A stretch of 64,000 bases of DNA from a virus. Within the stretch, counting starts at the first letter, position 1. Each line of letters opens with the position of its first letter. Shown in pieces: positions 12,406 through 61,707 of this stretch. The position numbers were made by a program, and so were the translations under genes. The notes below the pieces were generated by a model, which was not told the origin of the DNA, ran no database searches, and worked only from the letters and a program-made list of their open reading frames with translations. The DNA lies in IMG/VR virus record IMGVR_UViG_3300043395_000996, positions 96,001 through 160,000 of that record. One strand, given 5' to 3'.

Positions 12406-12426
12406 AGTTTTTTTACTTTTTAACGA

Positions 12427-16430: not shown

Positions 16431-16434
16431 TATC

Positions 16435-16443: not shown

Positions 16444-16445
16444 TA

Positions 16446-32449: not shown

Positions 32450-32481
32450 CAAAGATAAGTAATTTATTCTAATTTTCCAAA
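32450..32481 (-). promoter_or_regulatory. Bacteroidota housekeeping-sigma promoter upstream of portal
   Basis: -33 TTTG (32478-32481), 20-nt spacer, -7 TATCTTTG (32450-32457). Confidence 0.75.
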
Positions 32482-42284: not shown

Positions 42285-42404
42285 TTAGAAATTTTTATAT
42301 ACAAATGGGTCTCTTTTTTTAAGTTCTTCTAATTTTTTCTTAATTCTTTTTTTCATTTTATACTTTTCGTATAATTCTTTTAAATATTTAAATGGATTTA
42401 TCAT
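42285..42404 (-). CDS. 39-aa basic peptide (KKLEELKKRDPFVY type), absent from the ORF track
   Basis: Hand translation MINPFKYLKELYEKYKMKKRIKKKLEELKKRDPFVYKNF; ATGA-coupled to the upstream stop. Confidence 0.7.
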   Translation of the reverse strand: MINPFKYLKELYEKYKMKKRIKKKLEELKKRDPFVYKNF

Positions 42405-43837
42405 AATATATCTATTTTTGGTTTACTTATTAAATATTCTCTATTTGTTAGAGCTAAAAAATGATTGTGGTCTAATGATATTTTTTTACTACCAATTTTA
42501 TACATTAATTCTTTATTATGTATTAGTCTTGGTAATAATTGTTTTACCATTTCGGAAAGCTCTTCTATTGAATAACTATTTAATCTTTTAATTTCATTAA
42601 AAATCATAGATAATCTAATAGATGGGTCTTTTTTCGTATCATATCTTTCATCTATTATTGGATGAAATGTTTTGAACCCCATTTGTTTTAAAAATTTTAA
42701 AGAATTGTATGGGCCAATTAATACAAACGGATGACCATGTACAATTGGTTTCCAAATTTTTTCCGAAAGATATCCACTCTCTTCATAAAATAAAGTTTCT
42801 GATACAATTGATATTAAAGATTTCATATAAACATCTTTATTTTCAAATCCATATCCCCATACATTTTCTAAATTATCATAATCTATTGTTCTTGGTGATG
42901 TTTGATTTAAATACGAAATAAAATCATTGTATTCATTTATATCCAATTTTCTTTTTAAATCATCTATTACACCATCTGTAATTAAATTATAATCATAACT
43001 TATAAGATTAGATTCTAACATATTTTCTTTCCAAAGAAAATGCAATACTTCACTTCTATGAGGTCGTATTCTTCTATTAAAATTTAAAAATTTAACAGAT
43101 TTCATATTGAAATTTGCGATATCTTCCATATTAGAAAATGTATAGTTTGTTTTCTTCTCATCTTCTAACCAAAAATTATAATCATCTTGATTTGATTTTT
43201 TGAAATATTCCTCTGCTTTAGAATTCAATGACCAACAAAAATGAATTAATTTTGGCATAAAATTACCAAAAATTGGTTTCATCATTTGTTCTAAATGAAA
43301 ATCATTATGACAAATTATTATTTTATTTGGTGGTAGATTTAAATCCAATAAGCATTTATATAATTTTATTAATTGATTTTTTGATATATTACCATCTATT
43401 ACATAATTAATAACAAGCTTTCCACCATAATCTCTAATTTCTTCTAAAGTTTTTGAAGGAATAAATTTAGAAAATGGTATATTATGAGATGTCTTATTCA
43501 ATCCCAAAAAATTCGCAATATCACCATATGGTTCAATCAAATAATACCAATCGTAACAATTTCCACGTTCTCTTTCTCTAATAATTGCATGAACCGAACG
43601 TGTTTCTATACCAAAATATCCAGGATTTCCTTCTTCATCATTTAATTGTACGTTAAATCGTGCATTAAATACAGACCAAAGTGCTTTATGTTTATCTTTA
43701 AAATAATTTTCTGATGTATCAAATGTATAATCTGTGTGGTATGCAAAATCCAAATATTTTGGATTTAAGCAATTTGGTACTTCATTGTATGGAAATAAAA
43801 TATCGTAACCAACTACAATTCTTTCATTATTGTTCAT
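42401..43837 (-). CDS. Putative glycosyltransferase with GT10-like C-terminal motif
   Basis: SIVSETLFY...YLSEKIWKPI..GHPFVLIG; paralog of 48900..50228. Start moved to MNNNER (track gives 43858). Confidence 0.55.
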   Translation of the reverse strand: MNNNERIVVGYDILFPYNEVPNCLNPKYLDFAYHTDYTFDTSENYFKDKHKALWSVFNARFNVQLNDEEGNPGYFGIETRSVHAIIRERERGNCYDWYYLIEPYGDIANFLGLNKTSHNIPFSKFIPSKTLEEIRDYGGKLVINYVIDGNISKNQLIKLYKCLLDLNLPPNKIIICHNDFHLEQMMKPIFGNFMPKLIHFCWSLNSKAEEYFKKSNQDDYNFWLEDEKKTNYTFSNMEDIANFNMKSVKFLNFNRRIRPHRSEVLHFLWKENMLESNLISYDYNLITDGVIDDLKRKLDINEYNDFISYLNQTSPRTIDYDNLENVWGYGFENKDVYMKSLISIVSETLFYEESGYLSEKIWKPIVHGHPFVLIGPYNSLKFLKQMGFKTFHPIIDERYDTKKDPSIRLSMIFNEIKRLNSYSIEELSEMVKQLLPRLIHNKELMYKIGSKKISLDHNHFLALTNREYLISKPKIDIL

Positions 43838-44369
43838 AATATAATTCAGGATATTCAACTAAACAATGTATTCCACCTTCTCCAATCGCATATTCATATG
43901 AATTATAAATATCAAATGGCGTTTTTAAATCGTGAAATTCTATATTTTTGCAAAGCGATTTAAATTCTTCGATATAACTTCCTTTATGTTGATGACCAGG
44001 GTCTAATGGTTTATCTGAACCTTTACCTAATCTAATTATAATATTTACTTTTTTATCAGTCATCATTTCGTATTTATCCAAATGATTGATTAATTGATTT
44101 GTTGCCGAAATGATGAAATCCCAACGAGGATAGAATGTAATAACTCGCTTACCAGTCATTGCTAATCCCAAGCTCATTCCCATTTGTGTTTCTTCCATCA
44201 CAGGCACTTCAATCATTTTTTCTTTTGGTACATCTCCTAATGTTGTACTCATAGGATTTCCGGCATAAACTATTTGTTGTCCAATAAAGATTGTATCATC
44301 CATTTTTGCTAATTTTGTCATAGCATTTGTTAGTGCATCTTTGTATGGAGAATATTGTGGTGTACTCAT
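43827..44369 (-). CDS. ThDP-dependent E1-beta/transketolase pyrimidine-binding subunit (truncated, 180 aa)
   Basis: IEVPVMEETQMGMSLGLAMTG, DFIISATNQLIN and GHQH motifs. Confidence 0.8.
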   Translation of the reverse strand: MSTPQYSPYKDALTNAMTKLAKMDDTIFIGQQIVYAGNPMSTTLGDVPKEKMIEVPVMEETQMGMSLGLAMTGKRVITFYPRWDFIISATNQLINHLDKYEMMTDKKVNIIIRLGKGSDKPLDPGHQHKGSYIEEFKSLCKNIEFHDLKTPFDIYNSYEYAIGEGGIHCLVEYPELYYEQ

Positions 44370-45208
44370 ATTAATTTATATTTTGCATTTTCTATATTTT
44401 TAATAATGCTATCTGCTATTATTTTATGACATTCCATAGATGGATGTTCATCGTTTGGCGTATTTTCTTCAAAAAATTTTTTATTATTTATAATTTCAAA
44501 TTCAGGTTCAAATTCAATTAAATTTTGAATACATTTAAAAACATTATTATCATATTCTAAATGAATTAATCTTTTTGATAAAAATGTATCAGTTTTAATA
44601 TATGGTAAATATTCATCGGTCCAACATAGCAATCTAGTATTTATGTTAAATGCTTCTTCGTAGAGAGATAATTTTTGTTTAATATTTTCAATATTTGAAA
44701 CTATGAAATCAGAATACCATTCTTCAAATGTTAAATCAATACTTTTTAAATATTTACAAAATATATTAAATGTAGCTTTATGAGATGGATGATGAATTCC
44801 ACTTTCAAATACAAATTCTTTATTATCAAAAATTAATTTATATGGATTTCTTAAAACTTGGCTTGTTTGAAATATTATGAAATTAAAATCTTTTGGTTCA
44901 AATTCTAATGGAAACAAATATTCATCTCTATCTAATTTATTTTTTAATCCTAATGTGTTATCGATAAATTCAATAGATAATGTATCTCTTCCTCCATTAT
45001 ATTTTTGTACTACTTCAAATGTATTAAAGTGATTTGCAACTAGTCTTGGAAAACGTTTGGATTCCATATATTTAATTTGAGCCAAACGTAAATCCATCAT
45101 ATTAAATTCTGAATTTTTATAAGATAGGTTACTGTTATCTAAATCAGAATAATAATATAATCCTTGTCCCCAAGTAAAAGAACAACCTGCAAATATTATA
45201 CCTCTCAT
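44366..45208 (-). CDS. SGNH-like hydrolase/acyltransferase, paralog 1
   Basis: GCSFTWGQG and DEHPSMECH motifs. Start moved to MRGIIF (track gives 45271). Confidence 0.6.
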   Translation of the reverse strand: MRGIIFAGCSFTWGQGLYYYSDLDNSNLSYKNSEFNMMDLRLAQIKYMESKRFPRLVANHFNTFEVVQKYNGGRDTLSIEFIDNTLGLKNKLDRDEYLFPLEFEPKDFNFIIFQTSQVLRNPYKLIFDNKEFVFESGIHHPSHKATFNIFCKYLKSIDLTFEEWYSDFIVSNIENIKQKLSLYEEAFNINTRLLCWTDEYLPYIKTDTFLSKRLIHLEYDNNVFKCIQNLIEFEPEFEIINNKKFFEENTPNDEHPSMECHKIIADSIIKNIENAKYKLI

Positions 45209-45218
45209 AATTAAAAAA

Positions 45219-46211
45219 TTATGGTTTTGAGTTTGGGTTGTATTGATTTTTATTTTCTTTATACCACTCAATGGTTTCTTTGAGAGCTTGTTTTAAATCT
45301 CTTTTTGGAAACCAACCGGCATCGTTAATTTTCTTTGATGATAATAATCGAACCGGAATCATTGGTGCCTTATTGTTCACATATTCAATTGGATTGGTAT
45401 TTCCATCTATTTCTTTAATCCAACCCAATACTTCATTCACACTAAATCCTTCACCATATGCAACGTTGAAGATATTAAATGTATCGTTGTTTTCAGCAAC
45501 CCAAATAAATCCATCTGCCATATCTTCAACGTGTAATAAATCTCTTACTTCCGTACCATCACCCCAAACTGGGATTGGATTTAAACCATCTGCTACTTTA
45601 CGAATATTTGCAGGAGTAACGTGGCACTTTTCAAAATCAAATTTATCATTAGGGCCGAATGCATTTGAAGGTCTAACAATCAAACACTGCATTGGGTTAT
45701 GAATTTGATGTGAGAAATAATCACATAATAATTCACCATATCGTTTCATATTACCAACTGCACCATAGATAGGAAATGTAGGTGTTGCATGAACATTAAT
45801 ATCTTCAGTACAAAACTCATCCTTCATATCTGGATAGACAGTGTTAGATGAAATAAATAAGAATTTACCAACTTTATTTCTCCAACTTTGTTCCATTAAG
45901 TTTACGTTCATCTCCACATTTGGAGTAACGTGTAAAAGTGGATTTTCTTTTGTATCCAATGCGTTTGATGTGTTTGCTGCACAATGAAATACTACATCAA
46001 CTCCTTCCGAAACTTCAGCACAAAATTTAGCATCTTGTAAGTTTCCTTTATATAATGGAATGTTTTCACATCCCTCAAAATCATTTCTCAATCCTCTACT
46101 ATGAGAAGTTGCACGTAAATTGGTGTAACCCTTCTGATGTAATAATCTTAATAAATGTGAACCAATAAATCCGCTTGCACCTGTAACTAAAATTTTGTCT
46201 GTTTTTTTCAT
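45219..46211 (-). CDS. Extended SDR (GDP-fucose-synthase-like) nucleotide-sugar epimerase/reductase
   Basis: TGASGFIG, RPSNAFGP and WGDGTEVRDLLHV motifs. Confidence 0.8.
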   Translation of the reverse strand: MKKTDKILVTGASGFIGSHLLRLLHQKGYTNLRATSHSRGLRNDFEGCENIPLYKGNLQDAKFCAEVSEGVDVVFHCAANTSNALDTKENPLLHVTPNVEMNVNLMEQSWRNKVGKFLFISSNTVYPDMKDEFCTEDINVHATPTFPIYGAVGNMKRYGELLCDYFSHQIHNPMQCLIVRPSNAFGPNDKFDFEKCHVTPANIRKVADGLNPIPVWGDGTEVRDLLHVEDMADGFIWVAENNDTFNIFNVAYGEGFSVNEVLGWIKEIDGNTNPIEYVNNKAPMIPVRLLSSKKINDAGWFPKRDLKQALKETIEWYKENKNQYNPNSKP

Positions 46212-46217
46212 AATTAA

Positions 46218-46811
46218 TTATTTTTTATGTATAAATGCACATATTGCATATCTTTCTGAATTTTTTACTTTTGTAACTTCGTGTTCAACTGAATTTTCTG
46301 TATAATCTATCACAACAACTCTACCATATTCTGGAACTATTTTTGTTTTATTTTTTAAAATTAAACATCCACCATTATTTTCATCATAATTTTTATTAAG
46401 ATAAATTAATATTCCGGCGATTCGTTTTGGGTCTCTCCCATCATTGTGCGGAATTATAAAACATCCATCATTAAATAATGTAACAGAATCTAAAATTTCA
46501 ATATCATTTATAGAATAGAATTTTAAATAAATACTTGTTAATAAATCATATATTTCGGTTTTTTTAGGAGAATCTACATACCAAATTTGTGCTAAATTTG
46601 GATGATTTAATAATTCATTTTTTTTAATATCTAAATTAGAAAAAGAATCATATGGTAACATATGGTTATGCCCTACATTGTTATAAGAAACTCTTAATGT
46701 ATGAAAATTATTATTTGATATTATAGAATGTATATTAGATAATAATTTTAATTCATTTTCATCTGTTATATCAAACGTTATAAACCCATTTTTTATTAAT
46801 TCTTCTTTCAT
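46218..46811 (-). CDS. 2OG-Fe(II) oxygenase
   Basis: PHND (HxD), GILIYLN and HEV...RYAI motifs. Confidence 0.75.
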   Translation of the reverse strand: MKEELIKNGFITFDITDENELKLLSNIHSIISNNNFHTLRVSYNNVGHNHMLPYDSFSNLDIKKNELLNHPNLAQIWYVDSPKKTEIYDLLTSIYLKFYSINDIEILDSVTLFNDGCFIIPHNDGRDPKRIAGILIYLNKNYDENNGGCLILKNKTKIVPEYGRVVVIDYTENSVEHEVTKVKNSERYAICAFIHKK

Positions 46812-46817
46812 AATTTA

Positions 46818-46849
46818 CAAAGATACGACATTTATTTGATATTTCCAAA
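46818..46849 (-). promoter_or_regulatory. Bacteroidota housekeeping-sigma promoter upstream of the oxygenase
   Basis: TTTG (46846-46849), 20-nt spacer, TATCTTTG (46818-46825). Confidence 0.75.
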
Positions 46850-47923
46850 TTAAAATAGTTCCCATTTTAAAATAATATCTTTTACAAATTTGTTATACAT
46901 TTTTGCTGAAACATGCCCCAATGGACATCTCCAATCTTCATAATTTTCCAACATTTCATCAAATGTTTTAAATGGTTTATTATTTTTAGATTGTTCCATA
47001 AACAAAATATTGTGATATTCTTGATTTGTAGATGTATCATTTATATCAAAATTTTTAATAGCCCATTCTGTAACGCCACCATATTTGTGTATGTTTTCTT
47101 CTTCATAAAACCAAAAAGAATTCCAATCAATTAAATTCCAATAATAATTCAAATATGGATTATCTTTATATCTCATACTATCATTCCAAGTATTTGGAAC
47201 ATATTTGTTATATAATATTTCATATAATTCATTATGCTTACTATATTCAGGTTTAAATCGTGGAAATCCACCACTTTTTATTAAATTCAAAACATATGTA
47301 TCTGAAAAATTATTGGCTATATTAAACATTTTGTATTTAATATTATTTGATTTTAAATACAACTGAAGCATTACAATTGTTTCCAAAAAACATAACATTC
47401 GTTCTTCGTATGAATGTACCCATCCTAAATTTAAAGCCGCAAATTCCTTCATTGGGTTTTTAATATGTTCCATAAAAAATCCACCTGAAAGGAAATAATA
47501 TCCATTTTCACCCATTTCACTTTTTTCTTCTACAAAGTCATTTATATGGGCATAATCATCATCCCACCTTCTTCGATGTTGTGGTAATTTTAATTTAGGA
47601 TTTTCTTTTATTTTTGATGGAGAAACAAAAAATGAATTTCTATAAAAAGATGACCATTGAACTATAACCGATATATCGGATGTATCAATTCCTTCTTTTT
47701 TTAATTTTTCTATTTTATAGATAATACTTCTTGCTATTGATTGATTATCATTTGTAACATTTGCAACATTTATTACATTCAAATTTGGATTCAGTATTTT
47801 TAATTGATGAGAAAAATAATAAATTTCCTTATGGTCCTCATTTAGAATATTATTATCTGTCACATCTATATTGATTCTACCTGCTCTAGTAAAAGAGCAC
47901 CCACTTGTTACCAAATGTTTCAT
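46850..47923 (-). CDS. SGNH-like protein, paralog 2
   Basis: SGCSFT, VQWS and C-terminal LGHVS motifs. Confidence 0.5.
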   Translation of the reverse strand: MKHLVTSGCSFTRAGRINIDVTDNNILNEDHKEIYYFSHQLKILNPNLNVINVANVTNDNQSIARSIIYKIEKLKKEGIDTSDISVIVQWSSFYRNSFFVSPSKIKENPKLKLPQHRRRWDDDYAHINDFVEEKSEMGENGYYFLSGGFFMEHIKNPMKEFAALNLGWVHSYEERMLCFLETIVMLQLYLKSNNIKYKMFNIANNFSDTYVLNLIKSGGFPRFKPEYSKHNELYEILYNKYVPNTWNDSMRYKDNPYLNYYWNLIDWNSFWFYEEENIHKYGGVTEWAIKNFDINDTSTNQEYHNILFMEQSKNNKPFKTFDEMLENYEDWRCPLGHVSAKMYNKFVKDIILKWELF

Positions 47924-48924
47924 TATAATCTACTTTTATATTCTAAAATCGATTTAGTCAAACCTTCCTTTAAAGTAGTTTGTGGTAAAATACCATATTT
48001 TGTTTGTAATTTAGAACCTAAACATCTAATTGGGTCTCCGTTTGTTTTAGTTTCATCCCAAACAATATTTTTAGTTTTGCCTGTAATTTCTTTATAACAC
48101 TCAACAATAGTTTCAATTGTTTCTTTAATAGTTACTGCTTCCGCACATCCAAAGTTGATAATATCTTTAACTTCTTTTTTAACTACATCAATTGTAGCCT
48201 GTGCAACATCATCACCAAATACAAAATCTCTTTTTGATGAACCATTACCCCAACATACCATATCATCTCCTTCTACATTGAACAATTTCCAAATATTAGA
48301 TGAAATTACAGTTGCATCTTGCGCAAAATTATCGTTGATTCCGTAAATGTTTGAAGGTCTAATTACAGTCCAATTATCCCAACCATACTGAACTTTAAGA
48401 GCATCTAATGTAAGTTCTCCCATTCTCTTTGTCCAACCGGGATGCCAATCTAAACGTGATGGAGTTGATGCCCAAGTTTCTTGCTGATTCCAAATATCTT
48501 CTTCGTTCATTACATCTGCCGGCTTATACACTCCAACCGATGATAAATAAACAAACCAATCAACTTTTGCATCAAATGATGCTTTAATCATATTGGTATT
48601 AAACATTAACATTGGGAATAGGTAATCGGCTGGATTTTGCGATGAACGAGCCGGCGAACCTTTTACACCTGCTATGTGGAGAACAATATCCATCTTATCC
48701 AATGCAAATAATTCTTCGCAATGAGAAAGATATGTCAAATCGGTTTTAACTAAAACCAATCTATCACCACCATATTGAGATTGTAAAAAATTTAATTTAT
48801 CACCAAATTTTAAGTCTACTGCGTAAACTTTTTCGGCTCCTTCTTCTAAACATTTTTTAACTGCCGGGAATCCAACCAATCCGTTTGCTCCAGTTATAAC
48901 TACTTTTTTTCCTGTAAATTGCAT
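47923..48924 (-). CDS. Extended SDR (GDP-fucose-synthase-like) nucleotide-sugar epimerase/reductase
   Basis: TGANGLVG, RPSNIYG and WGNGSSKRDFVF motifs. Confidence 0.8.
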   Translation of the reverse strand: MQFTGKKVVITGANGLVGFPAVKKCLEEGAEKVYAVDLKFGDKLNFLQSQYGGDRLVLVKTDLTYLSHCEELFALDKMDIVLHIAGVKGSPARSSQNPADYLFPMLMFNTNMIKASFDAKVDWFVYLSSVGVYKPADVMNEEDIWNQQETWASTPSRLDWHPGWTKRMGELTLDALKVQYGWDNWTVIRPSNIYGINDNFAQDATVISSNIWKLFNVEGDDMVCWGNGSSKRDFVFGDDVAQATIDVVKKEVKDIINFGCAEAVTIKETIETIVECYKEITGKTKNIVWDETKTNGDPIRCLGSKLQTKYGILPQTTLKEGLTKSILEYKSRL

Positions 48925-50228
48925 ATTTCTTTTATTTTTTGTAAACTGTTTGTAAATACATCATAATTTGTAAATGATAGTAAATGATTTCTATTATATA
49001 TACATATATCTTTACACGATAAAATCATTTCATTTATTTCATCTATTGATAATTTTGATAATCTTAAAATTTCATCACACACTTTTTTAAATCGTATATG
49101 GCTATTTTCTTCCTCATCATAACTCTCATCTATTATATGACCGAACGTTTTAAATCCAAGTCTACGAAGTTCAGCCAATTGACCGTTCGATGCTATCATT
49201 ATAAATGGTTGAAAATTTAAAATTGGATGAAATGTTTTTTCTGATATAAAAACCCTATTATTGGTAAATGTTGTCTCGGTGACAATATTAATTGCTGTAT
49301 CTTGATAATATTTTTTATAATAAATTACAGATGTTGGAAAGCTACTTAAAGTATTTTTATTTTTTAAAAAATTTGTATCAATTTCCATTGGTATTTTTGA
49401 TAAAAAATTATCATGTATCTCACCATATGAATCAAATTTAGATTGCGGTATAGAATCTATTGCTTGAATTTCTCTTTCTCTTAAATTTAAAAATGTAAAA
49501 TACCCTTTATCCCACAAATTGTGCTCTTCTAAAAATAACCCCAATGCATATCTATGTGTTCTATTTACAGTACGATTTAGAGATAAAAAATGTTTTTGCT
49601 TTTTTATATTAAAAATATCATATCCAACTAATTCATTTTGAAATGAAAATTCATGTCCATCCAATACTTTATTTTTTAAAAAATATTTCAAAGTTTCTGC
49701 TGCATTTTTTATAAAAAAATGGTCTGATATATAATTTAATTCGGATGTGTTTCGTATATTAGCTGCTCCTGAAAATACAAAAAAATTTGTTATATCTAAA
49801 TCGTATTTTCTACAAATTCTTTTTATATGCAAATTAAATGTTTCATCATATAATGGTTCGGCAAACCAATTAAATACAACTTTCAATTTTCCATCTTTTA
49901 ATTTTTTAAAAGCTTTTTCGGATATATTTTCTATAAATTTATCATAATAATATGCCGGCGGATTAAATGATTCGCACAAATATATTAAATTATCTTCATC
50001 TATATTTGTAGTAATTAAATTATATTTTTCAGCACATCCTCTATACCCATTTCCTAATAACTTTTCAGGAGACTCTCGTATTTCATAAGTTGTCCAATTA
50101 TAATATTCTGAACATTTCTTTTTAAATTCTTCCTTTTCTGATGTTGATAAATTATTTGGTATAACTCTACCAAAATCATCTACATTTTCAAAATAAAATT
50201 TAAAAGGCAATCCACTTTCCAGTTCCAT
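48900..50228 (-). CDS. Putative glycosyltransferase with GT10-like C-terminal motif
   Basis: INIVTETTF...FISEKTFHPILNFQPFIMIA; paralog of 42401..43837. Confidence 0.55.
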   Translation of the reverse strand: MELESGLPFKFYFENVDDFGRVIPNNLSTSEKEEFKKKCSEYYNWTTYEIRESPEKLLGNGYRGCAEKYNLITTNIDEDNLIYLCESFNPPAYYYDKFIENISEKAFKKLKDGKLKVVFNWFAEPLYDETFNLHIKRICRKYDLDITNFFVFSGAANIRNTSELNYISDHFFIKNAAETLKYFLKNKVLDGHEFSFQNELVGYDIFNIKKQKHFLSLNRTVNRTHRYALGLFLEEHNLWDKGYFTFLNLREREIQAIDSIPQSKFDSYGEIHDNFLSKIPMEIDTNFLKNKNTLSSFPTSVIYYKKYYQDTAINIVTETTFTNNRVFISEKTFHPILNFQPFIMIASNGQLAELRRLGFKTFGHIIDESYDEEENSHIRFKKVCDEILRLSKLSIDEINEMILSCKDICIYNRNHLLSFTNYDVFTNSLQKIKEICNLQEKK

Positions 50229-52962: not shown

Positions 52963-52963
52963 A

Positions 52964-53935
52964 TTAAAAATTTTGTGCGTATCCTAACGGGAATCCATTT
53001 CTAAATTCTGCTCCCATTTTAGGAACAATCATTTGATATCCCTGAATTAATTGTTTAATACCTCTATCTAAATCCCACTGTGGCTCCCACCCAGTCGCTT
53101 CTATTTTAGCGTTTGATACGATGTAGTCTCTTTTATCGGGGTCCTCATAAAAATCGTTGTATGATACCGCAAAATCCTTTACATGATATTGTATCTTTTC
53201 CAACAATTCTTGCTTTGATAAATTTGCAGAACTCAACCCAACATTGAATACTTCACCTTTATATTCATCATAATTTTTTAACATAAAAAGAAACGCAGAT
53301 GCCACATCCTCAACGTGAATGAAATTTCTTTTAAAATTCTTTTCAAACACAACAATGTATTTATCGGTAATTGCTTTGTAAGTAAAATCATTTACTAACA
53401 AATCCGTTCTCATACGAGGAGATACACCAAATACAGTTGCTAATCTAAATATGATTGCATCGGTTGAAGTTCTTAAAAAATTTTCTGCATCACACTTTGT
53501 TTGGCCATAAACTGATATAGGCGTTAGTGGTGATTCTTCTGTACACTCTGTTTGTCCTTCTGCAATACCATATCCACTATTTGTGTTTGGGTATAAAATT
53601 TTCTTACCTTTTCCGTTAGTAAATCTAACAATATTAAGAATTTGATGGAAGTTAATTTGTTTTGCTAATTCCGGCTCTGCTGCACATGCGGGAAATCCTA
53701 CAATTGCTGCTAATGGAATAATTACATCGGCATCATTACATAGTTTTTCTAATAAAGATTCATTACGAACATCTCCGTGTATGAATTTAAAATTAGAATC
53801 AGATGTGTATTGTAAAAGTGAAGTTTGATTAAACAACAATTTATCCAATACCACAACTTGATATCCCATATTTAATAGTTTTCCAACTATAACCGAGCCT
53901 AAATATCCAGCTCCACCTGTAACTAATACTTTCAT
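52964..53935 (-). CDS. NAD-dependent epimerase/dehydratase (extended SDR)
   Basis: TGGAGYLGS, canonical YGQTK and RLATVFG motifs. Confidence 0.85.
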   Translation of the reverse strand: MKVLVTGGAGYLGSVIVGKLLNMGYQVVVLDKLLFNQTSLLQYTSDSNFKFIHGDVRNESLLEKLCNDADVIIPLAAIVGFPACAAEPELAKQINFHQILNIVRFTNGKGKKILYPNTNSGYGIAEGQTECTEESPLTPISVYGQTKCDAENFLRTSTDAIIFRLATVFGVSPRMRTDLLVNDFTYKAITDKYIVVFEKNFKRNFIHVEDVASAFLFMLKNYDEYKGEVFNVGLSSANLSKQELLEKIQYHVKDFAVSYNDFYEDPDKRDYIVSNAKIEATGWEPQWDLDRGIKQLIQGYQMIVPKMGAEFRNGFPLGYAQNF

Positions 53936-54669
53936 TATAATTTCTCTAAATCTTTACAAAATTTCATTATGTGATTGTTGTTTCCCGTCATGTCCCAAAA
54001 CTTATAAGGAGTTTCATTTTTAAAATCAAAACAACATAGTAATCCCAATTCTTCTTTATCTAAACATCTAAAACCATATTTATTTTCAGTAACAAATGAA
54101 TCAATATTTTTTCTAAAATCATTTACAACCGAACCATCTAATTTTTTATCCGATACTATAAAGAAATCTGTATAACATTCTTGTGACCAACTAAAATCTC
54201 CTTTGGTGTCAGCTGAACCTACAAAGTATGGTGCGTTTTCATAATTTCTTAATTTACCACCCAATGTTTCCGAATATACCAATTCATCATCAATCCAAAA
54301 TTCATAAGTATTTGTATCTGCATCCCAATTTAAAGTATATAAGTGCATTTCGTTCCAAAATGCTTCATCTTTGTAGAATAAGATTTTATCTGCATACTTT
54401 TCTTCATCACCTTCTACATACCAAAAATTCAACATTATCATATCCGGCTTTCTATAAACGATTCCGGTGTGTAAACCTCTTCTCATAAAGATTCCAGCCA
54501 TATCATCAGCTTTTGAATCATCTTCACTTCTTTTCCAAGTTCCACTAATTGTCCAACTCTTTTCATTCATTACATAAAACGCAGATGTATCAATGATACC
54601 ATAAGCGTTATGTGGCCACCAAGGCAAATCTGCTAATATCAATGGCTCTTTGTAAGGTACTTTATACAT
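53935..54669 (-). CDS. Stand-alone LamG/ConA-like domain protein
   Basis: YEFWIDDELV, FVGS and DF...WDMTGNNNH motifs, resembling the inserts in the two GT7 genes. Confidence 0.5.
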   Translation of the reverse strand: MYKVPYKEPLILADLPWWPHNAYGIIDTSAFYVMNEKSWTISGTWKRSEDDSKADDMAGIFMRRGLHTGIVYRKPDMIMLNFWYVEGDEEKYADKILFYKDEAFWNEMHLYTLNWDADTNTYEFWIDDELVYSETLGGKLRNYENAPYFVGSADTKGDFSWSQECYTDFFIVSDKKLDGSVVNDFRKNIDSFVTENKYGFRCLDKEELGLLCCFDFKNETPYKFWDMTGNNNHIMKFCKDLEKL

Positions 54670-54670
54670 A

Positions 54671-56071
54671 CTATAACTTTATTGTTTTTGTAAAATGGTA
54701 AAATTCTTCTAATTCAGGGAATGTTTTGCAAAAATCAGTTCCTCTTCTTTTATCATGCTCACTAAAATATTGATAGAAATTGTATCTCGCTTTAAACAAT
54801 GCACTATCTTCAATTGGAGAAATAGCCCAATCATATGTTCTTTTTAGCTTTTGAATTTCTAAATCAGAAAATCCAACATATCCTTTTGAATAATATGGAA
54901 TTCCGTGATAGAATGCTAATTGAGCTTGGTCTAAAATATTTTGCTTAAACTGATGTGGTAATACCTGAACAGTTTGATGACGAGGATGTCTTAAATAAGA
55001 TGTATCCATCAATACAGGCGATAACCAATATCTATCATCTCCAGCATATTCTCTTTTTAATTCATACACTCCTTTGATAAATTTATCAAAACTAAATACC
55101 GATAACATATTATATGTTACCATAAATGTAATAGTAATTTTCGGAACTTCTCTTAAAATTCTATTTACGTTATTCCAAAATCTATTAAACTCTAAACCAT
55201 TACGAATATATTCAGCTTGCTCCCCCCAACCATCACACGATGTAAATAATACAAATCCCTTTACTTTATCTTCTTCTGTAATTCTTTTTAGCTTTTCAAT
55301 TAATTTTGTAATCAATTCATCCGGTACACCTAAATTTGAATTGATAGAAAAATCTAAATTTTTATTTGGATTTGGTTCATCAATGATATAATCTAATACT
55401 TTCCAAGTATCTTTGTGCATCAATGGTTCACCACCCGTAATTCTAAATGTATGTAAATCTCTATACAAATCAGGCCACCATTTCCAAAATGCTTCTACAT
55501 AAGGATTATGTTCTCTCAATGGAATTGGCATCTTTTGTTCAGCTGCCAAATGTTTTAAATCGTTAAAACTATCTGTCGTTGGGTATCCACCAAATTGCTG
55601 AATCTCTTCCATCCATTTTGTAGAGAAAGTTGGTGAACAATATGAACATGCGAAGTTACAAGCATTTGAAAACGCAACTTCAACATAGCGTGGGTTAAAG
55701 TCATCTCTCCAATTTGAATTAATAATTTGGTCTGCTAAAGGCCAGCTCCAATCTTCCGATGATTTAAATACTCTATCCGAATATAAATCCGAATTATCTT
55801 CTACACCCCAACAATAATCACATTCCGTAGGTCTAGCACCATTCATCATCTCTTTTCTTTTTTGCTTTTTAAATAAAGTATTGTGAAGAGCAGATGGGTT
55901 TCGTGCAATCTCTAATTCAGAAACTTTATGAGTGTTTGGGTGGTGACAAGAGTGATTGTGACCTGTGTGTAAATGTGTTGTAACTTGTGTCCATTTTGCT
56001 AAACACATTCCCTTACCCACATTATCTAATTTTGTCTTTACTTCTTCGTAAAGTGGTTTTTTATATGCCAT
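54671..56071 (-). CDS. Radical SAM protein with N-terminal Cys-rich (twitch/SPASM-like) segment
   Basis: CNFACSYC, ITGGEP and N-terminal CLAKW...SCHH...CDYCW motifs. Confidence 0.85.
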   Translation of the reverse strand: MAYKKPLYEEVKTKLDNVGKGMCLAKWTQVTTHLHTGHNHSCHHPNTHKVSELEIARNPSALHNTLFKKQKRKEMMNGARPTECDYCWGVEDNSDLYSDRVFKSSEDWSWPLADQIINSNWRDDFNPRYVEVAFSNACNFACSYCSPTFSTKWMEEIQQFGGYPTTDSFNDLKHLAAEQKMPIPLREHNPYVEAFWKWWPDLYRDLHTFRITGGEPLMHKDTWKVLDYIIDEPNPNKNLDFSINSNLGVPDELITKLIEKLKRITEEDKVKGFVLFTSCDGWGEQAEYIRNGLEFNRFWNNVNRILREVPKITITFMVTYNMLSVFSFDKFIKGVYELKREYAGDDRYWLSPVLMDTSYLRHPRHQTVQVLPHQFKQNILDQAQLAFYHGIPYYSKGYVGFSDLEIQKLKRTYDWAISPIEDSALFKARYNFYQYFSEHDKRRGTDFCKTFPELEEFYHFTKTIKL

Positions 56072-57479
56072 AACCTATTGTTTTAACGTTAATCATCTTA
56101 TGTCTATTATAAATAGTATCAATTGATAAAAGTTCGTAATTCATACTATTAATTCCGTCATTTTTATAATTTATTTCTCCTTGCTGCATTTGTAAAACGT
56201 ATCTTCTTTCGTTTCTTGCAGTTGTTTCACCTTTTGCCCATTTATCGATTCCACCTTCTTTTATCAATCCCTCCGTTTGGTGTGGTAAACATAAAAATTT
56301 ACCATCTCTTCTATATGGTAAAATGGTATGTGGAATTTGTATTTGCTCTTTAACTATTTCTACATTTTCTAAATTTTCCAATTCATCATCAAAATCATAA
56401 TCCAATATTAATCCATTTTGTGGAATTTGTTTGTGCATATTTTTGATTTCAGTTTTACCCAAACATCTATCCCACATTTTGATATCAGAAATATATCCTT
56501 TAAAAAATACTTCGGTTGGTGATTTGGAATAACCAATTGTAAATGGCTCCATACCATATCTTTTCAATGGTTCATTAAAAAATAATGGAGATTGTGTGCC
56601 AGTTCCTAATCTCGCATCACTTTCTCTACCATTCAAATAAAAATGTATTTTCTTTTTTTCAGAATCAACTGACATTGTAACCCAACTCCATTGATTTTCA
56701 TATCGTTTAATCCATTGGTATAAATGCCCTTTCATTCTATCCCAAAGTTGCATTGTATATGCTCTACTATTATTAAAAGATAATCCCCAATCGTAACCAG
56801 GTTTTCTAAATATAGGATATTCTATAAATTGTCTTTCCCCATCCCCAATTAACCAAATTGGAACTTTTTCTATTTGCTGGTCTGCTTTTACTAATACTGA
56901 AATTGTGTGAGAATTGGATAAACATTCTTTTAATTCTCTAGTTGGTCTATAAGTTGCTTTTGCATTTTCTCCATTAAAATATCCAACAAACTTTTCTTCA
57001 TTATATTCCAATTCCGTTTTTTCAACATAACCCTCCATCACACATCTCCAAAAAAGGTCATCATCTTCCATACCCCAATCCCAATAATCGTTTGAATAAC
57101 CATTAGTTTTCTCCACTTGTTCTTTTGAAAAAATAACTGCTCCACCAAAGTATTCTTCATACTTTAATTGATAATCTGATTGTGAGATACGAACTGCTAT
57201 ATGTTGTGGGTTATCGGTTGGAAACGAATAATCACAACTATCATCTTCCGGCACCATATCAATATCATGCCAAACGATGTAATCACATCCATCATCGAAT
57301 GCATGCTTAGCTGCAATGTTTTTCATTAAACCTCTATTAAAGAGTTTATCATCACATTGATGTGCTAAATAAATTGTATGCTCAATTCCTCTTTCTTCTA
57401 AAAATTTAGTAACGTGAGGAACAAACACTTTTAAATGTTCTTCTCTATTTCTATATGGAACGCATACTCCTAATTTCAT
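56061..57479 (-). CDS. GT7 (beta-1,4-galactosyltransferase-like) glycosyltransferase with internal LamG insertion
   Basis: VPYRNR, FNRG, HDID, YFGG and WGMEDDD motifs, then LamG, then the GT7 C-terminal segment (LPH...DGINSMNY). Confidence 0.85.
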   Translation of the reverse strand: MKLGVCVPYRNREEHLKVFVPHVTKFLEERGIEHTIYLAHQCDDKLFNRGLMKNIAAKHAFDDGCDYIVWHDIDMVPEDDSCDYSFPTDNPQHIAVRISQSDYQLKYEEYFGGAVIFSKEQVEKTNGYSNDYWDWGMEDDDLFWRCVMEGYVEKTELEYNEEKFVGYFNGENAKATYRPTRELKECLSNSHTISVLVKADQQIEKVPIWLIGDGERQFIEYPIFRKPGYDWGLSFNNSRAYTMQLWDRMKGHLYQWIKRYENQWSWVTMSVDSEKKKIHFYLNGRESDARLGTGTQSPLFFNEPLKRYGMEPFTIGYSKSPTEVFFKGYISDIKMWDRCLGKTEIKNMHKQIPQNGLILDYDFDDELENLENVEIVKEQIQIPHTILPYRRDGKFLCLPHQTEGLIKEGGIDKWAKGETTARNERRYVLQMQQGEINYKNDGINSMNYELLSIDTIYNRHKMINVKTIGYGI

Positions 57480-58891
57480 TATATACCAACATTTATTATT
57501 CTAATATTTTTATCTAATTTTTTAACACCATGTTCAATAAATTCTAAAGTAGATAATCCATCGTTTTTTAATAAATTATCATCATTACTAACTTCATTTA
57601 CAAATCTCAATTGATTCCATCTCGTACATTCATTTTTCCATTTATTATCAACAAATCCATTTTCTTCGTGTTTTAACGATTGAAATCTACATTTTTTTCT
57701 AAATGGTATTAAGTGATTTATTGATTGCGGTTCATTTGATTCGACAATTTCACAAGCTACAATTTCTGCATAATTTTTATTTCCAGATAAATCTTTTAAT
57801 CTATATTCATCTATTTTAGATGCATCATAATACATTTTTAATGATGTAGATTTTTGAATAGTTTCATCTAATTCAGTTCCTAATTTGTAAATTTTATCAT
57901 CAGATAAAACATCATCAAAATATGCGAATGATTTAAAATATCCTTTAAAAAAATTTGGAATTTTAATTCTTTCGGGATTTCCCACTCCAATATAACAATT
58001 ATTAACTATTTTATAATCTATTAAAAATTTTCGTATTTGAGCCGTTTCCCCTATATAAATTCCGTCTTGATAAACTTTTATTACTTTATCATTTGCATCA
58101 TATACAATTGTTATGTTTGTTAAATAATTTGGCTTTATTTCTGAATTTACAAAATGAGAATTCAGTTTATAATCAAATGCGCAAAAATTATATCTATGAA
58201 AAGATGTATATGATATAGCAAAATCATATCCGGGTATACTGAATATAGTAAACTCATCGGATTCTTTTTTATGGTCTAATTTTAAATCATCTGGGCAAAA
58301 TGTAACGGATATTGTAAAATGATAATTGAAATCTATTACATTTTTTATTTTTATATGAGAGTCGATTCCATTAAGTTTTAATAATTTTCTATTACCTATA
58401 TTTTTAAAAATTTTAGAATCCAAAGATACATTATTCTTTTTGCATCTTAACAATAAATCATCATCTTCATACCCCCATCCCCAATACTTATTTGAATAAC
58501 CATCTATATTTTCAAAAATTTCGGTTGGAAACATAGTTACGCCACCAAAATATGTATCAAATATTTCTCTGTTTTTTTCTCCTTGAGAATAATAAAAATT
58601 AGTAGCTAAATGTAATGGAATATGTGAATATGTGTAATCCACACTTAATGGAATCATATCCACATCGTGAAATACTACATAATCACATTTTAATTTTTTT
58701 GCATAAGTAAATCCAATATTAAGAAGCATACCACGATTGAATAATTTAGCATCATCTTGTTCAACTATTATTAATTCATAATCGATACGACCATTATTGA
58801 AATAATTAACCAATGCTTGTTTAAATACTTCTAAATGTTCGTATCGATTTCTATATGGTACAATAATCCCTAATTTGTGATTACTACTCAT
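57479..58891 (-). CDS. GT7 glycosyltransferase with internal LamG insertion, paralog
   Basis: VPYRNR, FNRG, HDVD, YFGG and WGWGYEDDD motifs, then LamG, then SLKH...DGLSTL. Confidence 0.85.
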   Translation of the reverse strand: MSSNHKLGIIVPYRNRYEHLEVFKQALVNYFNNGRIDYELIIVEQDDAKLFNRGMLLNIGFTYAKKLKCDYVVFHDVDMIPLSVDYTYSHIPLHLATNFYYSQGEKNREIFDTYFGGVTMFPTEIFENIDGYSNKYWGWGYEDDDLLLRCKKNNVSLDSKIFKNIGNRKLLKLNGIDSHIKIKNVIDFNYHFTISVTFCPDDLKLDHKKESDEFTIFSIPGYDFAISYTSFHRYNFCAFDYKLNSHFVNSEIKPNYLTNITIVYDANDKVIKVYQDGIYIGETAQIRKFLIDYKIVNNCYIGVGNPERIKIPNFFKGYFKSFAYFDDVLSDDKIYKLGTELDETIQKSTSLKMYYDASKIDEYRLKDLSGNKNYAEIVACEIVESNEPQSINHLIPFRKKCRFQSLKHEENGFVDNKWKNECTRWNQLRFVNEVSNDDNLLKNDGLSTLEFIEHGVKKLDKNIRIINVGI

Positions 58892-59096
58892 TTTCTTTTA
58901 CAAACTTTGTATGAAATTCTGCTAAATAATATTGTACTCTTTCGCTCCATTCATCTTTATCAATTTCTTCAAACCACACAGTTAAAGCATCTAATGAATT
59001 TGCAATTTTTTCTAATGCTTTTACTTTTCTAGTTTCCAAAATCAATTGTTCATCGTTTGTAGGTATTGTTTCTGTTTTTTGTGTACTTTTTGCCAT
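58884..59096 (-). CDS. Small hypothetical protein
   Basis: 70 aa; first gene after the 59118-59149 promoter. Confidence 0.6.
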   Translation of the reverse strand: MAKSTQKTETIPTNDEQLILETRKVKALEKIANSLDALTVWFEEIDKDEWSERVQYYLAEFHTKFVKENE

Positions 59097-59117
59097 AATT
59101 ATTCGTTTAAATTTTTA

Positions 59118-59149
59118 CAAAGATAAGTAATTTATTTTAATTTTCCAAA
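59118..59149 (-). promoter_or_regulatory. Bacteroidota housekeeping-sigma promoter
   Basis: TTTG (59146-59149), 20-nt spacer, TATCTTTG (59118-59125); 35 of 36 nt identical to the portal promoter. Confidence 0.78.
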
Positions 59150-59986
59150 CTATATTTTAACTATTTCATTTATTAATGAATTCCATTGACAATACGAACC
59201 AACACCCGATTTTTCTATTTTAAATTCGGGATTGGTAATGTCAATTTCAAAATTATTTCTCCTAATAGCTTGATACATTTTTAAATATTCTTTTGAAAAT
59301 GCGTAATCCTTTCTAATATCAGCAACTGCTTTTATTCTTTCTACACAAGTACTATCCCATTTGAAATGATGTACCTGAACACTATACTCATCTATTGGTG
59401 CAATTAATTTATTATCCGATTGTGGGCCCCAAAGAACTTCTCCATTTACTTTTGCATAATGCTGTCCATTGGTAATTTCAACATATCCTTTCATTACGCA
59501 AATTTTATTTGGACATGCTCCACTTAATGGGTATCTAAAGAATCCTGCTAATGGAAATTGTTCAAATATATTTTTATAAGGTTGTATTTCAGGAAAACTC
59601 CCACCTTCCCCAATTCTATCTACGAATCCACCTCTTACAATATCCCATCCATTTGTTTCACAATCTTCTATTAAAAATGGTAATGGCATTGGATACATAT
59701 GAAATTCATCATCGTCTGCTATAACCCACCAATCATCGGGGTATTGTGATTTTATTTCATTATATAATTCAGTTACAACTTCCCAATTAAACTTTTCTCT
59801 TTTTTCAACTTTTACAACTTTTGCTGATGGGAAATTTTCTAATATTTTTCCAACTTCTGCTAATATGTTAGTACCTTCCCATTCATATACGACAACAAAC
59901 ATTTCATCAACTATGTGTCGATAATGATTCAACATATGCCAAAGTGTATTTGTGCGAGAACCCGTAACAGTTAATAATCTAGTCAT
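59150..59986 (-). CDS. GT-A fold (GT2-like) glycosyltransferase
   Basis: WWVIADDDEF (DxD), KICVMK and VHHFKW motifs. Confidence 0.65.
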   Translation of the reverse strand: MTRLLTVTGSRTNTLWHMLNHYRHIVDEMFVVVYEWEGTNILAEVGKILENFPSAKVVKVEKREKFNWEVVTELYNEIKSQYPDDWWVIADDDEFHMYPMPLPFLIEDCETNGWDIVRGGFVDRIGEGGSFPEIQPYKNIFEQFPLAGFFRYPLSGACPNKICVMKGYVEITNGQHYAKVNGEVLWGPQSDNKLIAPIDEYSVQVHHFKWDSTCVERIKAVADIRKDYAFSKEYLKMYQAIRRNNFEIDITNPEFKIEKSGVGSYCQWNSLINEIVKI

Positions 59987-60748
59987 TTATTTTTTTGTTA
60001 GTATGCATAACCCAGTAGATGTAGGTAATTTGCCACTAAAGATACGAAAATTTTTTAAATTAACCAAATTCCATTCATCATTTTTTTCTAATTCTTTTAC
60101 AAATTTTGCAGGCCCATCAAAAGGTGCAAAATCTTTTTTAGCACTTTCGGTTACAACAAATGTATTATGATATTGTTGGTCTGTATCGTGGATTGTGATA
60201 ATTCCATTTTCAGCCATTATTTGTGAATACAATTCAAAATCCTTTTTAACACCTTCGTATGAATGGTCGCCATCTATGTGTAAATAGTCAATTTTAATAT
60301 CTTGTCTTACGAAGTAATCATAAAATGCTTTTTCAGAAGTTTCTAAAATTATTTGCGGAGAGAAGTGTTGCCTTAAAAAAGAATTTTCAGAAGTCCAATC
60401 GGTAAATCCGCCAACACCATTTGCCGCATCTACTACTATTGTAGTTCCAACATCACCCCATTCATTTTGTGGATTCCCTTCGAATATTTTTTGGTGCCAC
60501 AAATCTACACGAGATTGAGTCATAAGTCGTGGAATAAATCCACCACCGCTACCAATACATACGCATACTTTTGCTCTGATGAATTGTATTAAAGAATATA
60601 CCATTAACCCATCACCCAAATGTAAATCGGTTGCACCATGTGTCCATCGATAATTTATTGGTGTATGAACTATATTACCATCTTCATCGATGATATGATT
60701 ATTGGTTAAATAATCTTTAACTATATTTAAATTGATAAGACTTTGCAT
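59987..60748 (-). CDS. Class I SAM-dependent methyltransferase (Methyltransf_24-like)
   Basis: CIGSGGGF, IDYLHIDGDHSYEG and GIITIHD motifs. Start at MQSL (track gives 60763). Confidence 0.75.
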   Translation of the reverse strand: MQSLINLNIVKDYLTNNHIIDEDGNIVHTPINYRWTHGATDLHLGDGLMVYSLIQFIRAKVCVCIGSGGGFIPRLMTQSRVDLWHQKIFEGNPQNEWGDVGTTIVVDAANGVGGFTDWTSENSFLRQHFSPQIILETSEKAFYDYFVRQDIKIDYLHIDGDHSYEGVKKDFELYSQIMAENGIITIHDTDQQYHNTFVVTESAKKDFAPFDGPAKFVKELEKNDEWNLVNLKNFRIFSGKLPTSTGLCILTKK

Positions 60749-61707
60749 ATTTGAATAACCCAATTTTGTTTATTTGTATATTTTTCTAATCCTTTTTTTA
60801 ATCTGTCAAATTGTTTTTTATTTTTTTCAAATCCATCTTCTAATATTCTTAAATATTGATAATTGAATTGTTTTTTATTCATTGCTCTATATCGATATTT
60901 AATATCTTTCATCCAATCTGAATGTATTATAGGTAATTTACCATTATCAATTGCATCAAAGATTGCATAACCAAATGGTTCTTTTGTATAACATCCGTGA
61001 AATATTTTGAAATCTTTTTCAAAGAATTTATAATGAAAACGATAATCAAATTCTATGAATGTATGTACATCTGCGTTTATCTTACTACCCTCCAACATTC
61101 GTTTGTAATCGTATTTGTTTGAGAATATAAAAGCAGGTATTCCATCCAAATAATGTGCGTTTTTTCTCGTTTCACATCTTGCGGCATATCCTACTTTATT
61201 ACTTACTACATCCGTATATGGTTTGTTGTGTTTCCATTCATAATAATTTGTAATAGTAATTGTATTCGGAAAATAGGTATGAATAGTATCTTTTTCATAA
61301 CCTATCCAAACTATATTTTTAGAATTGTCCAAAATATCCTTTTGCCAATGCCAATCTAATCTTGTCATTAGATTTTCATACTCATCATTTAATCCCAACA
61401 TATCAGGTATGAAAGCATGAACAAATGTTGTGTGAGTTTTATGTAGATACTTTTTGATTATAGGATTTGGTTTATAAGAATGATGTAAGAATACAATCTT
61501 ATCACACTCATTTAATATCCTATCTATTTCATCATCGTTTTGGTAAGTGTATATTGCACCTTTTTCTGGCAACAAAGGTCTACCATCAACTACAATTTTG
61601 TAATCTTCCGTAACTAATGGTAAAACGTTCTCTACAAAGTTGTTACACCATATATCCGAACCCCCTACTACATTTTTTCCGTAACCAGTTGTTATGAATA
61701 CTATCAT
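60727..61707 (-). CDS. GT-B (GT4-like) glycosyltransferase, paralog of 4637..5632
   Basis: GGSDIW, GYAARCETRKN and EPFGYAIFDA...GKLPIIH motifs. Confidence 0.7.
   Translation of the reverse strand: MIVFITTGYGKNVVGGSDIWCNNFVENVLPLVTEDYKIVVDGRPLLPEKGAIYTYQNDDEIDRILNECDKIVFLHHSYKPNPIIKKYLHKTHTTFVHAFIPDMLGLNDEYENLMTRLDWHWQKDILDNSKNIVWIGYEKDTIHTYFPNTITITNYYEWKHNKPYTDVVSNKVGYAARCETRKNAHYLDGIPAFIFSNKYDYKRMLEGSKINADVHTFIEFDYRFHYKFFEKDFKIFHGCYTKEPFGYAIFDAIDNGKLPIIHSDWMKDIKYRYRAMNKKQFNYQYLRILEDGFEKNKKQFDRLKKGLEKYTNKQNWVIQICKVLSI

Follow-up and report, generated by a model that had tools for sequence, protein, structure and literature searches.

What does a phage build with a cluster of some twenty carbohydrate genes placed beside its own tail fibres, and onto what does it put the product? 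The question is raised by the island at positions 42401-61707 of a 64,000-nucleotide stretch of the IMG/VR virus record IMGVR_UViG_3300043395_000996 (positions 96,001 to 160,000 of that record). This whole stretch is called the window below, and coordinates are positions in the 64-kb window unless they are marked G000 (the whole record) or G001 and G002 (relatives). The record comprises 179,990 bp, was judged 95% complete and comes from an uncultured freshwater phage; its 204 called genes are all encoded on the minus strand, and this strand applies to the genes and promoters given below. Our answer, which we hold tentatively, is that the island most likely builds a chemically unusual glycan, which varies among strains, on the outer virion proteins of the phage itself, namely its fibres and baseplate. 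A sequence-only reading of the stretch had put forward a virion glycan as the best hypothesis, and this hypothesis is supported in part, circumstantially, by the excess of a serine motif in the tail proteins and by a serotype-like turnover of the island among relatives.

Gene Content and Solubility of the Island

The island consists of 21 minus-strand open reading frames (ORFs) on 19 kb and adjoins tail-fibre genes. Neighbouring genes are spaced by -53 to +53 nt; at 14 of the 20 junctions they overlap or are separated by no more than 1 nt, in agreement with the sequence-only description of about 20 co-oriented, tightly coupled genes. For 42401, 44366 and 59987 the ORF lister picked TTG starts that probably lie too far upstream: in the Atlas, the protein of 42401 starts at residue 8, and starts at Met22 (44366, ~45208) and Met6 (59987) would abolish overlaps of 53 and 37 nt. 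Families were assigned by Pfam and NCBIfam profiles and the catalytic motifs were inspected separately. The resulting inventory holds an RmlC-like epimerase, three short-chain dehydrogenases/reductases (SDRs), a pair of thiamine diphosphate (ThDP) enzyme subunits, a radical S-adenosylmethionine (SAM) enzyme, a 2-oxoglutarate (2OG) oxygenase, a methyltransferase, four GDSL/DUF6071-like proteins, a lectin-like protein and six glycosyltransferase candidates.

None of the island proteins has a transmembrane (TM) helix or a signal peptide as judged by hydropathy, a heuristic rather than a dedicated predictor. The same scan of the whole record, covering 366 ORFs of at least 60 aa, gave no polytopic membrane protein, the maximum being four TM-like segments in a 126-aa ORF. 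In this 95%-complete genome the phage thus appears to lack a flippase, a polymerase, an exporter and an initiating phosphotransferase of its own, and the polytopic transferase, flippase, permease, polymerase or ligase by which Wzx/Wzy- or ABC-dependent polysaccharide loci are recognised was not found among these 366 ORFs. The sequence-only reading, which had proposed such a check of the island ORFs, was thus right about the missing export genes, and the statement now extends to the whole genome. Its next step, that a transporter-free island must act on a cytoplasmic acceptor, does not follow. Peripheral transferases without TM helices are the norm in O-antigen assembly, soluble transferases normally use lipid-linked intermediates, and a host flippase could export such lipid-linked products.

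A Serine Motif Enriched in Tail Proteins

The fibres contain 25-29% Ser+Thr and are indeed rich in these residues, although the earlier wording, "extremely" rich, overstates it. The tripeptide [S/T]-[G/A]-S occurs 174 times in 26 tail, fibre and baseplate proteins against 54.1 expected (3.2x), and none of 500 shuffles reached as high a count. Order-permuted control motifs in the same set of proteins stayed at 1.0x and 0.79x, and the tripeptide itself is found at 1.1x in the head proteins, 0.35x in the island proteins and 0.70x elsewhere in the genome. T4 shows no excess of it in its fibre and baseplate proteins. The fibre shafts (8133-11429 and 13109-15631) are built of 14-residue repeats of the form L-x-x-[YF]-[TS]-[AG]-S-x-x-x-x, together with a recurring "IVSGSSQI".

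Fixed Position and Variable Content

The complete relatives G001 (245 kb, with terminal repeats) and G002 (198 kb) carry the entire island at the same place. Most island genes are 54-95% identical in these two genomes, like the structural genes, and two poorly conserved genes are at 28-44%. In both relatives there are also three extra genes after the E1-alpha gene, as well as one additional GDSL-like gene and two additional, free-standing 2OG oxygenases; one of the extra genes after E1-alpha encodes a 146-aa protein with the N-terminus IIDIDNTL, which looks HAD-like.

The comparison of island content across relatives, which the sequence-only reading had asked for, was extended by anchoring loci on the terminase large subunit (TerL). 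A TerL search in IMG/VR gave at least 600 matches, and the anchored comparison covered ~15 further relatives with 85-94% identical TerL. In these loci the island keeps its place upstream of the gene of a giant protein while its content differs: the homolog of 42401 is 30-57% identical or missing, a GT7+LamG gene adjoins the giant gene in two loci, the block of RmlC, SDR and E1-alpha is inverted in two, and one locus has nothing in common with the island. Judged from these alignments, the position of the island is fixed and its content is mosaic. Such turnover at a fixed position can be likened to that of serotypes and is reminiscent of a glycan that is exposed and under diversifying selection.

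Upstream Signals

Eleven genes in G000, two of them in the island, have a canonical promoter of the Bacteroidota sigma-A type (TTTG-N20-TAnnTTTG) directly upstream. One of the two island promoters lies at 59118..59149, 22 nt upstream of a 70-aa ORF (58884..59096) that is conserved in relatives and has no family assigned, and the other at 46818-46849, before the 2OG oxygenase gene at 46218. The former and the promoter of the portal gene (32450-32481) are alike in all but one of ~37 nt, compared by eye, and share an identical 19-nt core. A different signal, the motif (G/T)ATATTTATA, is found 5-60 nt upstream of 26 genes genome-wide, mostly virion genes (for example at 631, 2855, 8124, 11449, 16435, 23052, 30676 and 42262, gene sense minus), and is a candidate late promoter. 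Its copies in the island stand before the radical-SAM gene (ATTTATA, 37 nt upstream) and before 42401 (46 nt upstream). The T4 late-promoter word TATAAATA was rejected as a promoter here, as it occurs at chance frequency (18 vs 17.7 expected); the actual upstream motif is the reversed word, TATTTATA, read on the coding strand.

The shared promoter types link the island to the morphogenesis genes without fixing its timing. Sigma-A-type promoters lie before both portal and replication-region genes, therefore the promoter class gives no expression time. No Shine-Dalgarno sequence was seen in front of any island gene, which together with the Bacteroidota sigma-A-type promoters suggests that the phage has a Bacteroidota host.

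Glycosyltransferases

Of the at least six glycosyltransferases (GTs) that had been read from the sequence, two GT7 enzymes are confirmed by Pfam. The proteins at 57479..58891 and 56061..57479 both join a GT7-like (beta4GalT-like) catalytic domain to a LamG/ConA-like domain, with 76 and 69 bits to Glyco_transf_7N, 63 and 69 bits to Glyco_transf_7C (cut-offs 27 and 23) and 25 and 41.7 bits to Laminin_G_3, respectively. They are paralogs with 29% identity, and 56061 has 1990 metagenomic homologs of identical GT7+LamG architecture. In 50,697 GenBank phage records, tblastn gave no match to the GT7+LamG protein and none to the 42401 protein.

The protein at 42401..43858, a GT-B glycosyltransferase whose large family lacks annotation (8568 representative clusters), and its paralog at 48900..50228 (26% identity over 289 aa, E 5e-22; a member of alignment A1) had been called GT10-like. 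The GT-B part of this picture is clear from modelling: the alignment-based AF2 model of 42401, with pLDDT 89, is predicted to adopt the GT-B fold. Its best VIA-align Z scores are 11.3 to T4 beta-glucosyltransferase (BGT), 11.2 to GtfC/Gtf3 and 10.6 to an alpha1,3-fucosyltransferase (FucT; 2nzw), a tie in which structure comparison of the model cannot separate the candidate relatives. The GT10 label is not established for either paralog. No Pfam family, PF00852 (GT10) included, was matched in 65 members of the 42401 family, and the Atlas placement of 42401 toward GT10 scores only 0.79; the invariant R268 and E366-K367 of the family, in ...ETxF...SEK..KP, resemble the FucT motif.

The remaining two transferases are candidates. 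The putative GT-A enzyme (GT2-like) at 59150..59986 scores 19.2 bits to Glyco_tranf_2_4, below the cut-off of 27.5, and has a DxD motif in ADDDEF. The first gene of the island (60727..61707) encodes a candidate GT-B (GT4-like) enzyme of 326 aa, recognised by motif only: an N-terminal GGSD and an EX7E-like block, EPFGY..F(D)A...GK.PII, that is invariant in 26 homologs. It is 90-93% identical in G001 and G002 and has no Pfam, NCBIfam or PDB sequence match. PDB sequence searches likewise gave nothing significant for 42401, 48900, the radical-SAM enzyme, the profiles A1 and A5, or 50826, the sole GDSL-like protein searched. The inventory of the sequence-only reading is in essence correct, and its labels "GT10", "GT-B", "SGNH" and "lectin" are motif- or fold-level calls.

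Sugar-Donor and Tailoring Enzymes

The genes of donor synthesis had been named correctly, and all of them have profile matches. The RmlC-like NDP-4-keto-6-deoxy-sugar 3,5-epimerase (52426..52962) scores 114 bits to PF00908 and 110 bits to TIGR01221, whose equivalog cut-off is 156, and carries an RGLH motif. Next to it lies an extended SDR (52964..53935) of GalE, 4,6-dehydratase or RmlD-like type (Epimerase 125 bits, also matched by NCBIfam), in which the canonical YxxxK is intact. The two other extended SDRs are Fcl-like and lack the canonical YxxxK spacing; one at 47923..48924 is GDP-fucose-synthase-like by Pfam and NCBIfam, the other at 45219..46211 is GDP-fucose-synthase- or GalE-like (Epimerase 163 bits, also NCBIfam). 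The ThDP pair is minimal. Its E1-alpha-like PP-domain subunit of 209 aa (50200..50829) has 49 bits to E1_dh, the ThDP motif GDM-X26-EDND and 82 bits to the pyruvate dehydrogenase (PDH) E1-alpha profile, well under the equivalog cut-off. The E1-beta-like Pyr-domain subunit of 180 aa (43827..44369) matches Transket_pyr with 31.9 bits and the N-terminal part of PDH E1-beta, has the activating Glu in VMEETQMG and is devoid of the C-terminal domain.

Profiles also bear out the radical-SAM enzyme, the 2OG oxygenase and the methyltransferase. The twitch-domain radical-SAM enzyme (54671..56071) reaches 354 bits to NF033640 (cut-off 170) and is 95% identical in relatives. Its sole tblastn match among GenBank phages is in Ralstonia phage RsoM2USA, where the surrounding genes are unannotated; apart from it, a single island protein, one of the SDRs, matches there, and only weakly. 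The SAM-dependent methyltransferase (59987..60763) scores 42.9 bits to Methyltransf_24 (cut-off 26.3) and has a GSGGG motif. The 2OG-Fe(II) oxygenase (46218..46811) has a prolyl 4-hydroxylase (P4H)-type fold, 45.6 bits to 2OG-FeII_Oxy_3 (PF13640) and an intact HxD...H. In G001 and G002 the ortholog of the SDR at 45219 is a protein of 535 aa with an extra N-terminal 2OG-oxygenase domain, ~40% identical to 46218; this fusion lies at ~108.5-110.1 kb of G001:C1 and at the equivalent site of G002. Because a related domain is fused to a sugar SDR, this type of oxygenase is tied to sugar chemistry, and a role of 46218 as a protein hydroxylase that creates sequons, of the collagen or Skp1 type, was downgraded.

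The four proteins that had been called SGNH have GxSxT and DxH..S..GH end motifs, and the motif part of that call stands. Family profiles give less: two of them match DUF6071, both below threshold, and a third is placed by the Atlas. The protein at 51593..52426, with GDSFT and DFHLSKNGH, is placed at 0.96 to viral (virus-only) DUF6071 clusters, one of which has 11% Lipase_GDSL. Those at 50826..51596 (GxSxT/DxH..S..GH-type motifs) and 46850..47923 (GCSFT) reach 18.6 and 19.9 bits to DUF6071, and that at 44366..45271 (GCSFT and DEHPSMECH) has no Pfam match and is 28-64% identical in relatives. The supposed lectin (53935..54669) is a clade-restricted protein of 244 aa with 9 close homologs only. 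Its AF2 model is all-beta, of low confidence (pLDDT 55), and the best Foldseek matches are lectin-like jelly-roll subdomains and pentraxin; it is probably a ConA-like beta-sandwich, and the lectin call holds to that extent.

Flanking Genes

A T4-like core was detected in the phage (Portal_T4 246 bits, TerL phrog_2, gp23-type major capsid protein (MCP) phrog_138), and its nearest cultured portals are those of Microcystis phage Mel-JY01 (53%) and Flavobacterium phage immuto (47%). The flanks of the island are as the sequence-only reading described them. Upstream are a fibre gene (63267..66866) and, between it and the island, the gene of a DUF5977 protein (61720..63267; PF19404 69.6 bits; 66-72% identical in relatives), a possible fibre component; further fibre genes lie at 5637-19385, and several fibres end in S74 chaperone domains. 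Downstream are a 1766-aa giant protein, TerL, the portal and the MCP. The giant protein, encoded directly downstream (36939-42239), has an N-terminal HIGH-type nucleotidyltransferase domain (CTP_transf_like 26.8 bits). It also has a Gly/Ala-rich hydrophobic stretch, a zincin motif (HELVH) and, near the C-terminus, a ligase-like motif (KTDG), and segments of it are kept in the relatives and in a 907-aa "NMNAT" protein of immuto.

Discussion

The island belongs to a known class of glycan islands, those that adjoin the fibre genes of T4-like myophages from aquatic habitats. These have been described as host recognition clusters or "LPS-gene" islands in pelagimyophages and cyanomyophages (Zaragoza-Solas et al. 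2020, PMC7029224; S-SCSM2R and P-SSM2, PMC12801897), where glycosyltransferases, NDP-sugar epimerases and radical-SAM cassettes stand next to tail-fibre genes and vary among relatives. All features of the class are found here: the T4-like core, the adjacency to fibres, the variable content, and the combination of transferase, NDP-sugar and radical-SAM genes. Our phage differs in its lineage, as seen from the distance of the immuto portal, and in its Bacteroidota-type promoters; its island lies between fibre and packaging genes and contains the GT7+LamG fusions and the GT-B family for which the GenBank phage records gave no match. A further difference lies in the interpretation, as the authors of those studies favour modification of the host O-chain and we rank decoration of the virion higher.

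We favour a virion acceptor because the excess of the serine motif is confined to tail, fibre and baseplate proteins, because the searches gave no enzymatic route to a DNA base that could be glycosylated, because the content of the island turns over at a fixed position, and because promoter types link it to morphogenesis. The gene content, the solubility, the intact catalytic motifs, the conservation with its turnover and the motif excess are observed; which donor is used, in what sequence the enzymes act, where the glycan is attached and how the phage profits are inferred. We read the island as a pathway encoded by the phage and located entirely in the cytoplasm. Host pools of NDP-sugars, probably GDP- or dTDP-linked 4-keto-6-deoxy intermediates, would be reshaped by the RmlC-like epimerase and the three SDRs. 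The two-subunit ThDP enzyme would alter the sugar, likely by addition of a C2 branch, and the radical-SAM enzyme, the 2OG oxygenase and the methyltransferase would modify it further. The six soluble transferases, two of them with LamG lectin-like domains, would then build an oligosaccharide, to which the four GDSL/DUF6071-like enzymes may attach acyl groups or from which they may trim them. The product would be O-linked to Ser/Thr of fibres and baseplate, possibly at the periodic [S/T]-[G/A]-S, and give a strain-variable glycan coat. The full form of this proposal, in which the fibres and baseplate carry a self-made O-glycan with branched or deoxy sugars at the periodic motif and cassette exchange at the fixed locus generates phage "serotypes" like those of O-antigens, is speculative and, taken as a whole, we think it rather doubtful.

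Several observations weigh against a virion acceptor. The excess of the motif may be architectural, because it falls in the 14-residue structural repeats of the shafts. Immuto, the sole relative examined for the motif, has it too, and was considered as a transferase-free control; it fails as such and is not an independent control, because it encodes four transferases and an SDR. These make up a small glycan cluster at 49-59 kb of its genome (MW353176.1; two GT1-like, two GT2 and one SDR), far from the fibre genes. The MCP contains 14.7% Ser+Thr, with at most 20 such residues in any 100-residue window, and has no Ser/Thr-rich extension like that of mycobacteriophages. The position of the island amid virion genes, which the sequence-only reading had used as an argument, is weak evidence for a virion role, because the interval between fibres and terminase in immuto holds non-structural genes for a primase, an exonuclease and NMNAT. 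Finally, distant bacterial homologs of 42401 (profile A4) reside in loci for cell-surface polysaccharides, alongside genes of GT2, GT4, RgpF, carbamoyltransferase and GMD-like type, and the published reading of such islands is modification of the host O-chain (PMC7029224).

These last two points lead to the strongest rival, remodelling of the host envelope. The island enzymes would here produce unusual NDP-sugars and extend or alter oligosaccharides carried on undecaprenyl at the inner side of the membrane, and a flippase and a ligase of the host would export them; the changed O-antigen, capsule or O-glycoproteins could, for example, block superinfection or prevent the adsorption of progeny to debris. 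Besides the cellular homologs of 42401, the absence of TM helices from the transferases fits this usual mode of O-antigen assembly, and so do the low GC of the island (0.28 vs 0.33 in the remaining window) and its mosaic turnover, which are as in O-antigen loci. In pelagi- and cyanomyophages, the "host recognition clusters" rich in transferases have likewise been interpreted in this way (PMC7029224; PMC12801897). However, by hydropathy the phage has none of the polytopic membrane proteins, neither an initiating transferase nor a flippase, polymerase or ligase, and six transferases with a full tailoring set far exceed the known seroconversion modules. The layout is that of a T4-like myovirus, and in our judgement an outlay of 19 kb on the surface of a cell soon to be lysed has no demonstrated precedent. 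Additionally, the virion-restricted excess of the motif is left unexplained. Thus we regard envelope remodelling as unlikely, while it deserves to be kept in view.

Hypermodification of DNA, in which a glycan on a modified phage base would defeat restriction or CRISPR, is improbable; the sequence-only reading had named it as the main alternative to a virion glycan and had seen no base-modifying genes in the window. Such DNA glycans are made by the T4 alpha- and beta-glucosyltransferases, as arabinosyl-5hoC in RB69 and DLP3 (PMC13326640), and by MT/5mYOX/GT clusters (preprint 10.1101/2023.12.21.572611), and the latter can adjoin structural genes and employ LPS-like transferases. One would argue that the predicted likeness of 42401 to T4 BGT, its top structural match, points the same way, as do a 2OG oxygenase and a methyltransferase in the island; however, BGT is tied with protein- and glycan-acting enzymes, the oxygenase is of P4H type with its relative fused to a sugar SDR, and the methyltransferase belongs to Methyltransf_24 and not to a DNA methylase family. 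An enzyme that would make a hydroxylated base was not found. The sole thymidylate synthase homolog (G000:C1:29624-30715), which has a ~40-residue insertion, is canonical by its NCBIfam score (345 bits vs the equivalog cut-off of 325) and its active-site residues, the dUMP-specifying Asn being kept; no C5 DNA methylase (DNA_methylase) was found, and the Tet_JBP search gave no match, though its control was silent too. Moreover, six transferases and a synthesis of branched or deoxy sugars, a far larger tailoring set, exceed the mono- to tri-saccharide glycans on DNA that two studies describe (PMC13326640; 10.1101/2023.12.21.572611). Least probable is another cytoplasmic target, be it a free glycoside or glycosylated metabolite or non-virion proteins of phage or host such as defence and translation factors: the enzymes are soluble, no acceptor-specifying domain was recognised in them, and the ThDP, radical-SAM, methyltransferase and acyl-tailoring set recalls antibiotic deoxysugar pathways, but the Pfam scan of the island showed no aglycone-forming genes (polyketide synthase, nonribosomal peptide synthetase or similar), and six transferases with two lectin-like domains suggest an oligosaccharide on a macromolecule.

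If the glycan is placed on the virion, the island would by analogy work most like the self-glycosylation systems of mycobacteriophages and giant viruses. In the mycobacteriophage system a methyltransferase reportedly accompanies the transferases. As far as the citing papers describe it, soluble phage-encoded transferases O-glycosylate the virions of Che8, Corndog and Myrna, where decoration of the phage's own structural proteins was proposed or shown, with few genes and with glycans on C-terminal extensions of capsid and tail-tube subunits (Freeman et al. 2023, as cited in PMC12619734 and PMC12801897). The island shares the soluble phage-encoded transferases, as predicted from its ORFs; it differs by its 21 genes with their own donor synthesis, by an MCP without the Ser/Thr-rich extension and by fibres as candidate acceptors. 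In giant viruses mostly soluble, cytoplasmic virus-encoded transferases and bacterial-type rare-sugar gene clusters of clade-specific composition make the glycans of the PBCV-1 MCP and of the Mimivirus fibrils (PMC9614988). Their hosts are eukaryotic and their glycans have been solved by experiment.

For the ThDP pair there is a further counterpart. AviB1 and AviB2 are E1-alpha/beta-type enzymes for the C-branching of sugars in avilamycin and related pathways. The same layout is seen in the island: a PP domain with the ThDP motif and a separate Pyr domain with the activating Glu, no E2 or E3, and a context of NDP-keto-sugar enzymes. The subunits are much shorter here and their genes lie 5.8 kb apart, and the transfer of a C2 unit is a putative role.

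Islands of such size occupy ~1/10 of the genomes of aquatic phages that are very abundant, and the present one contains large enzyme families without annotation or known function, namely the GT-B family of 42401, DUF6071 and the minimal ThDP pair. Immuto, which is cultured and has both the fibre motif and a small transferase cluster, offers a practical test system. If the product does coat the virion, the phage particles would bear a variable glycan of their own, and this would have effects on host range, on the evasion of defence, on the stickiness and grazing of particles, and on how viral diversity is read from metagenomes.

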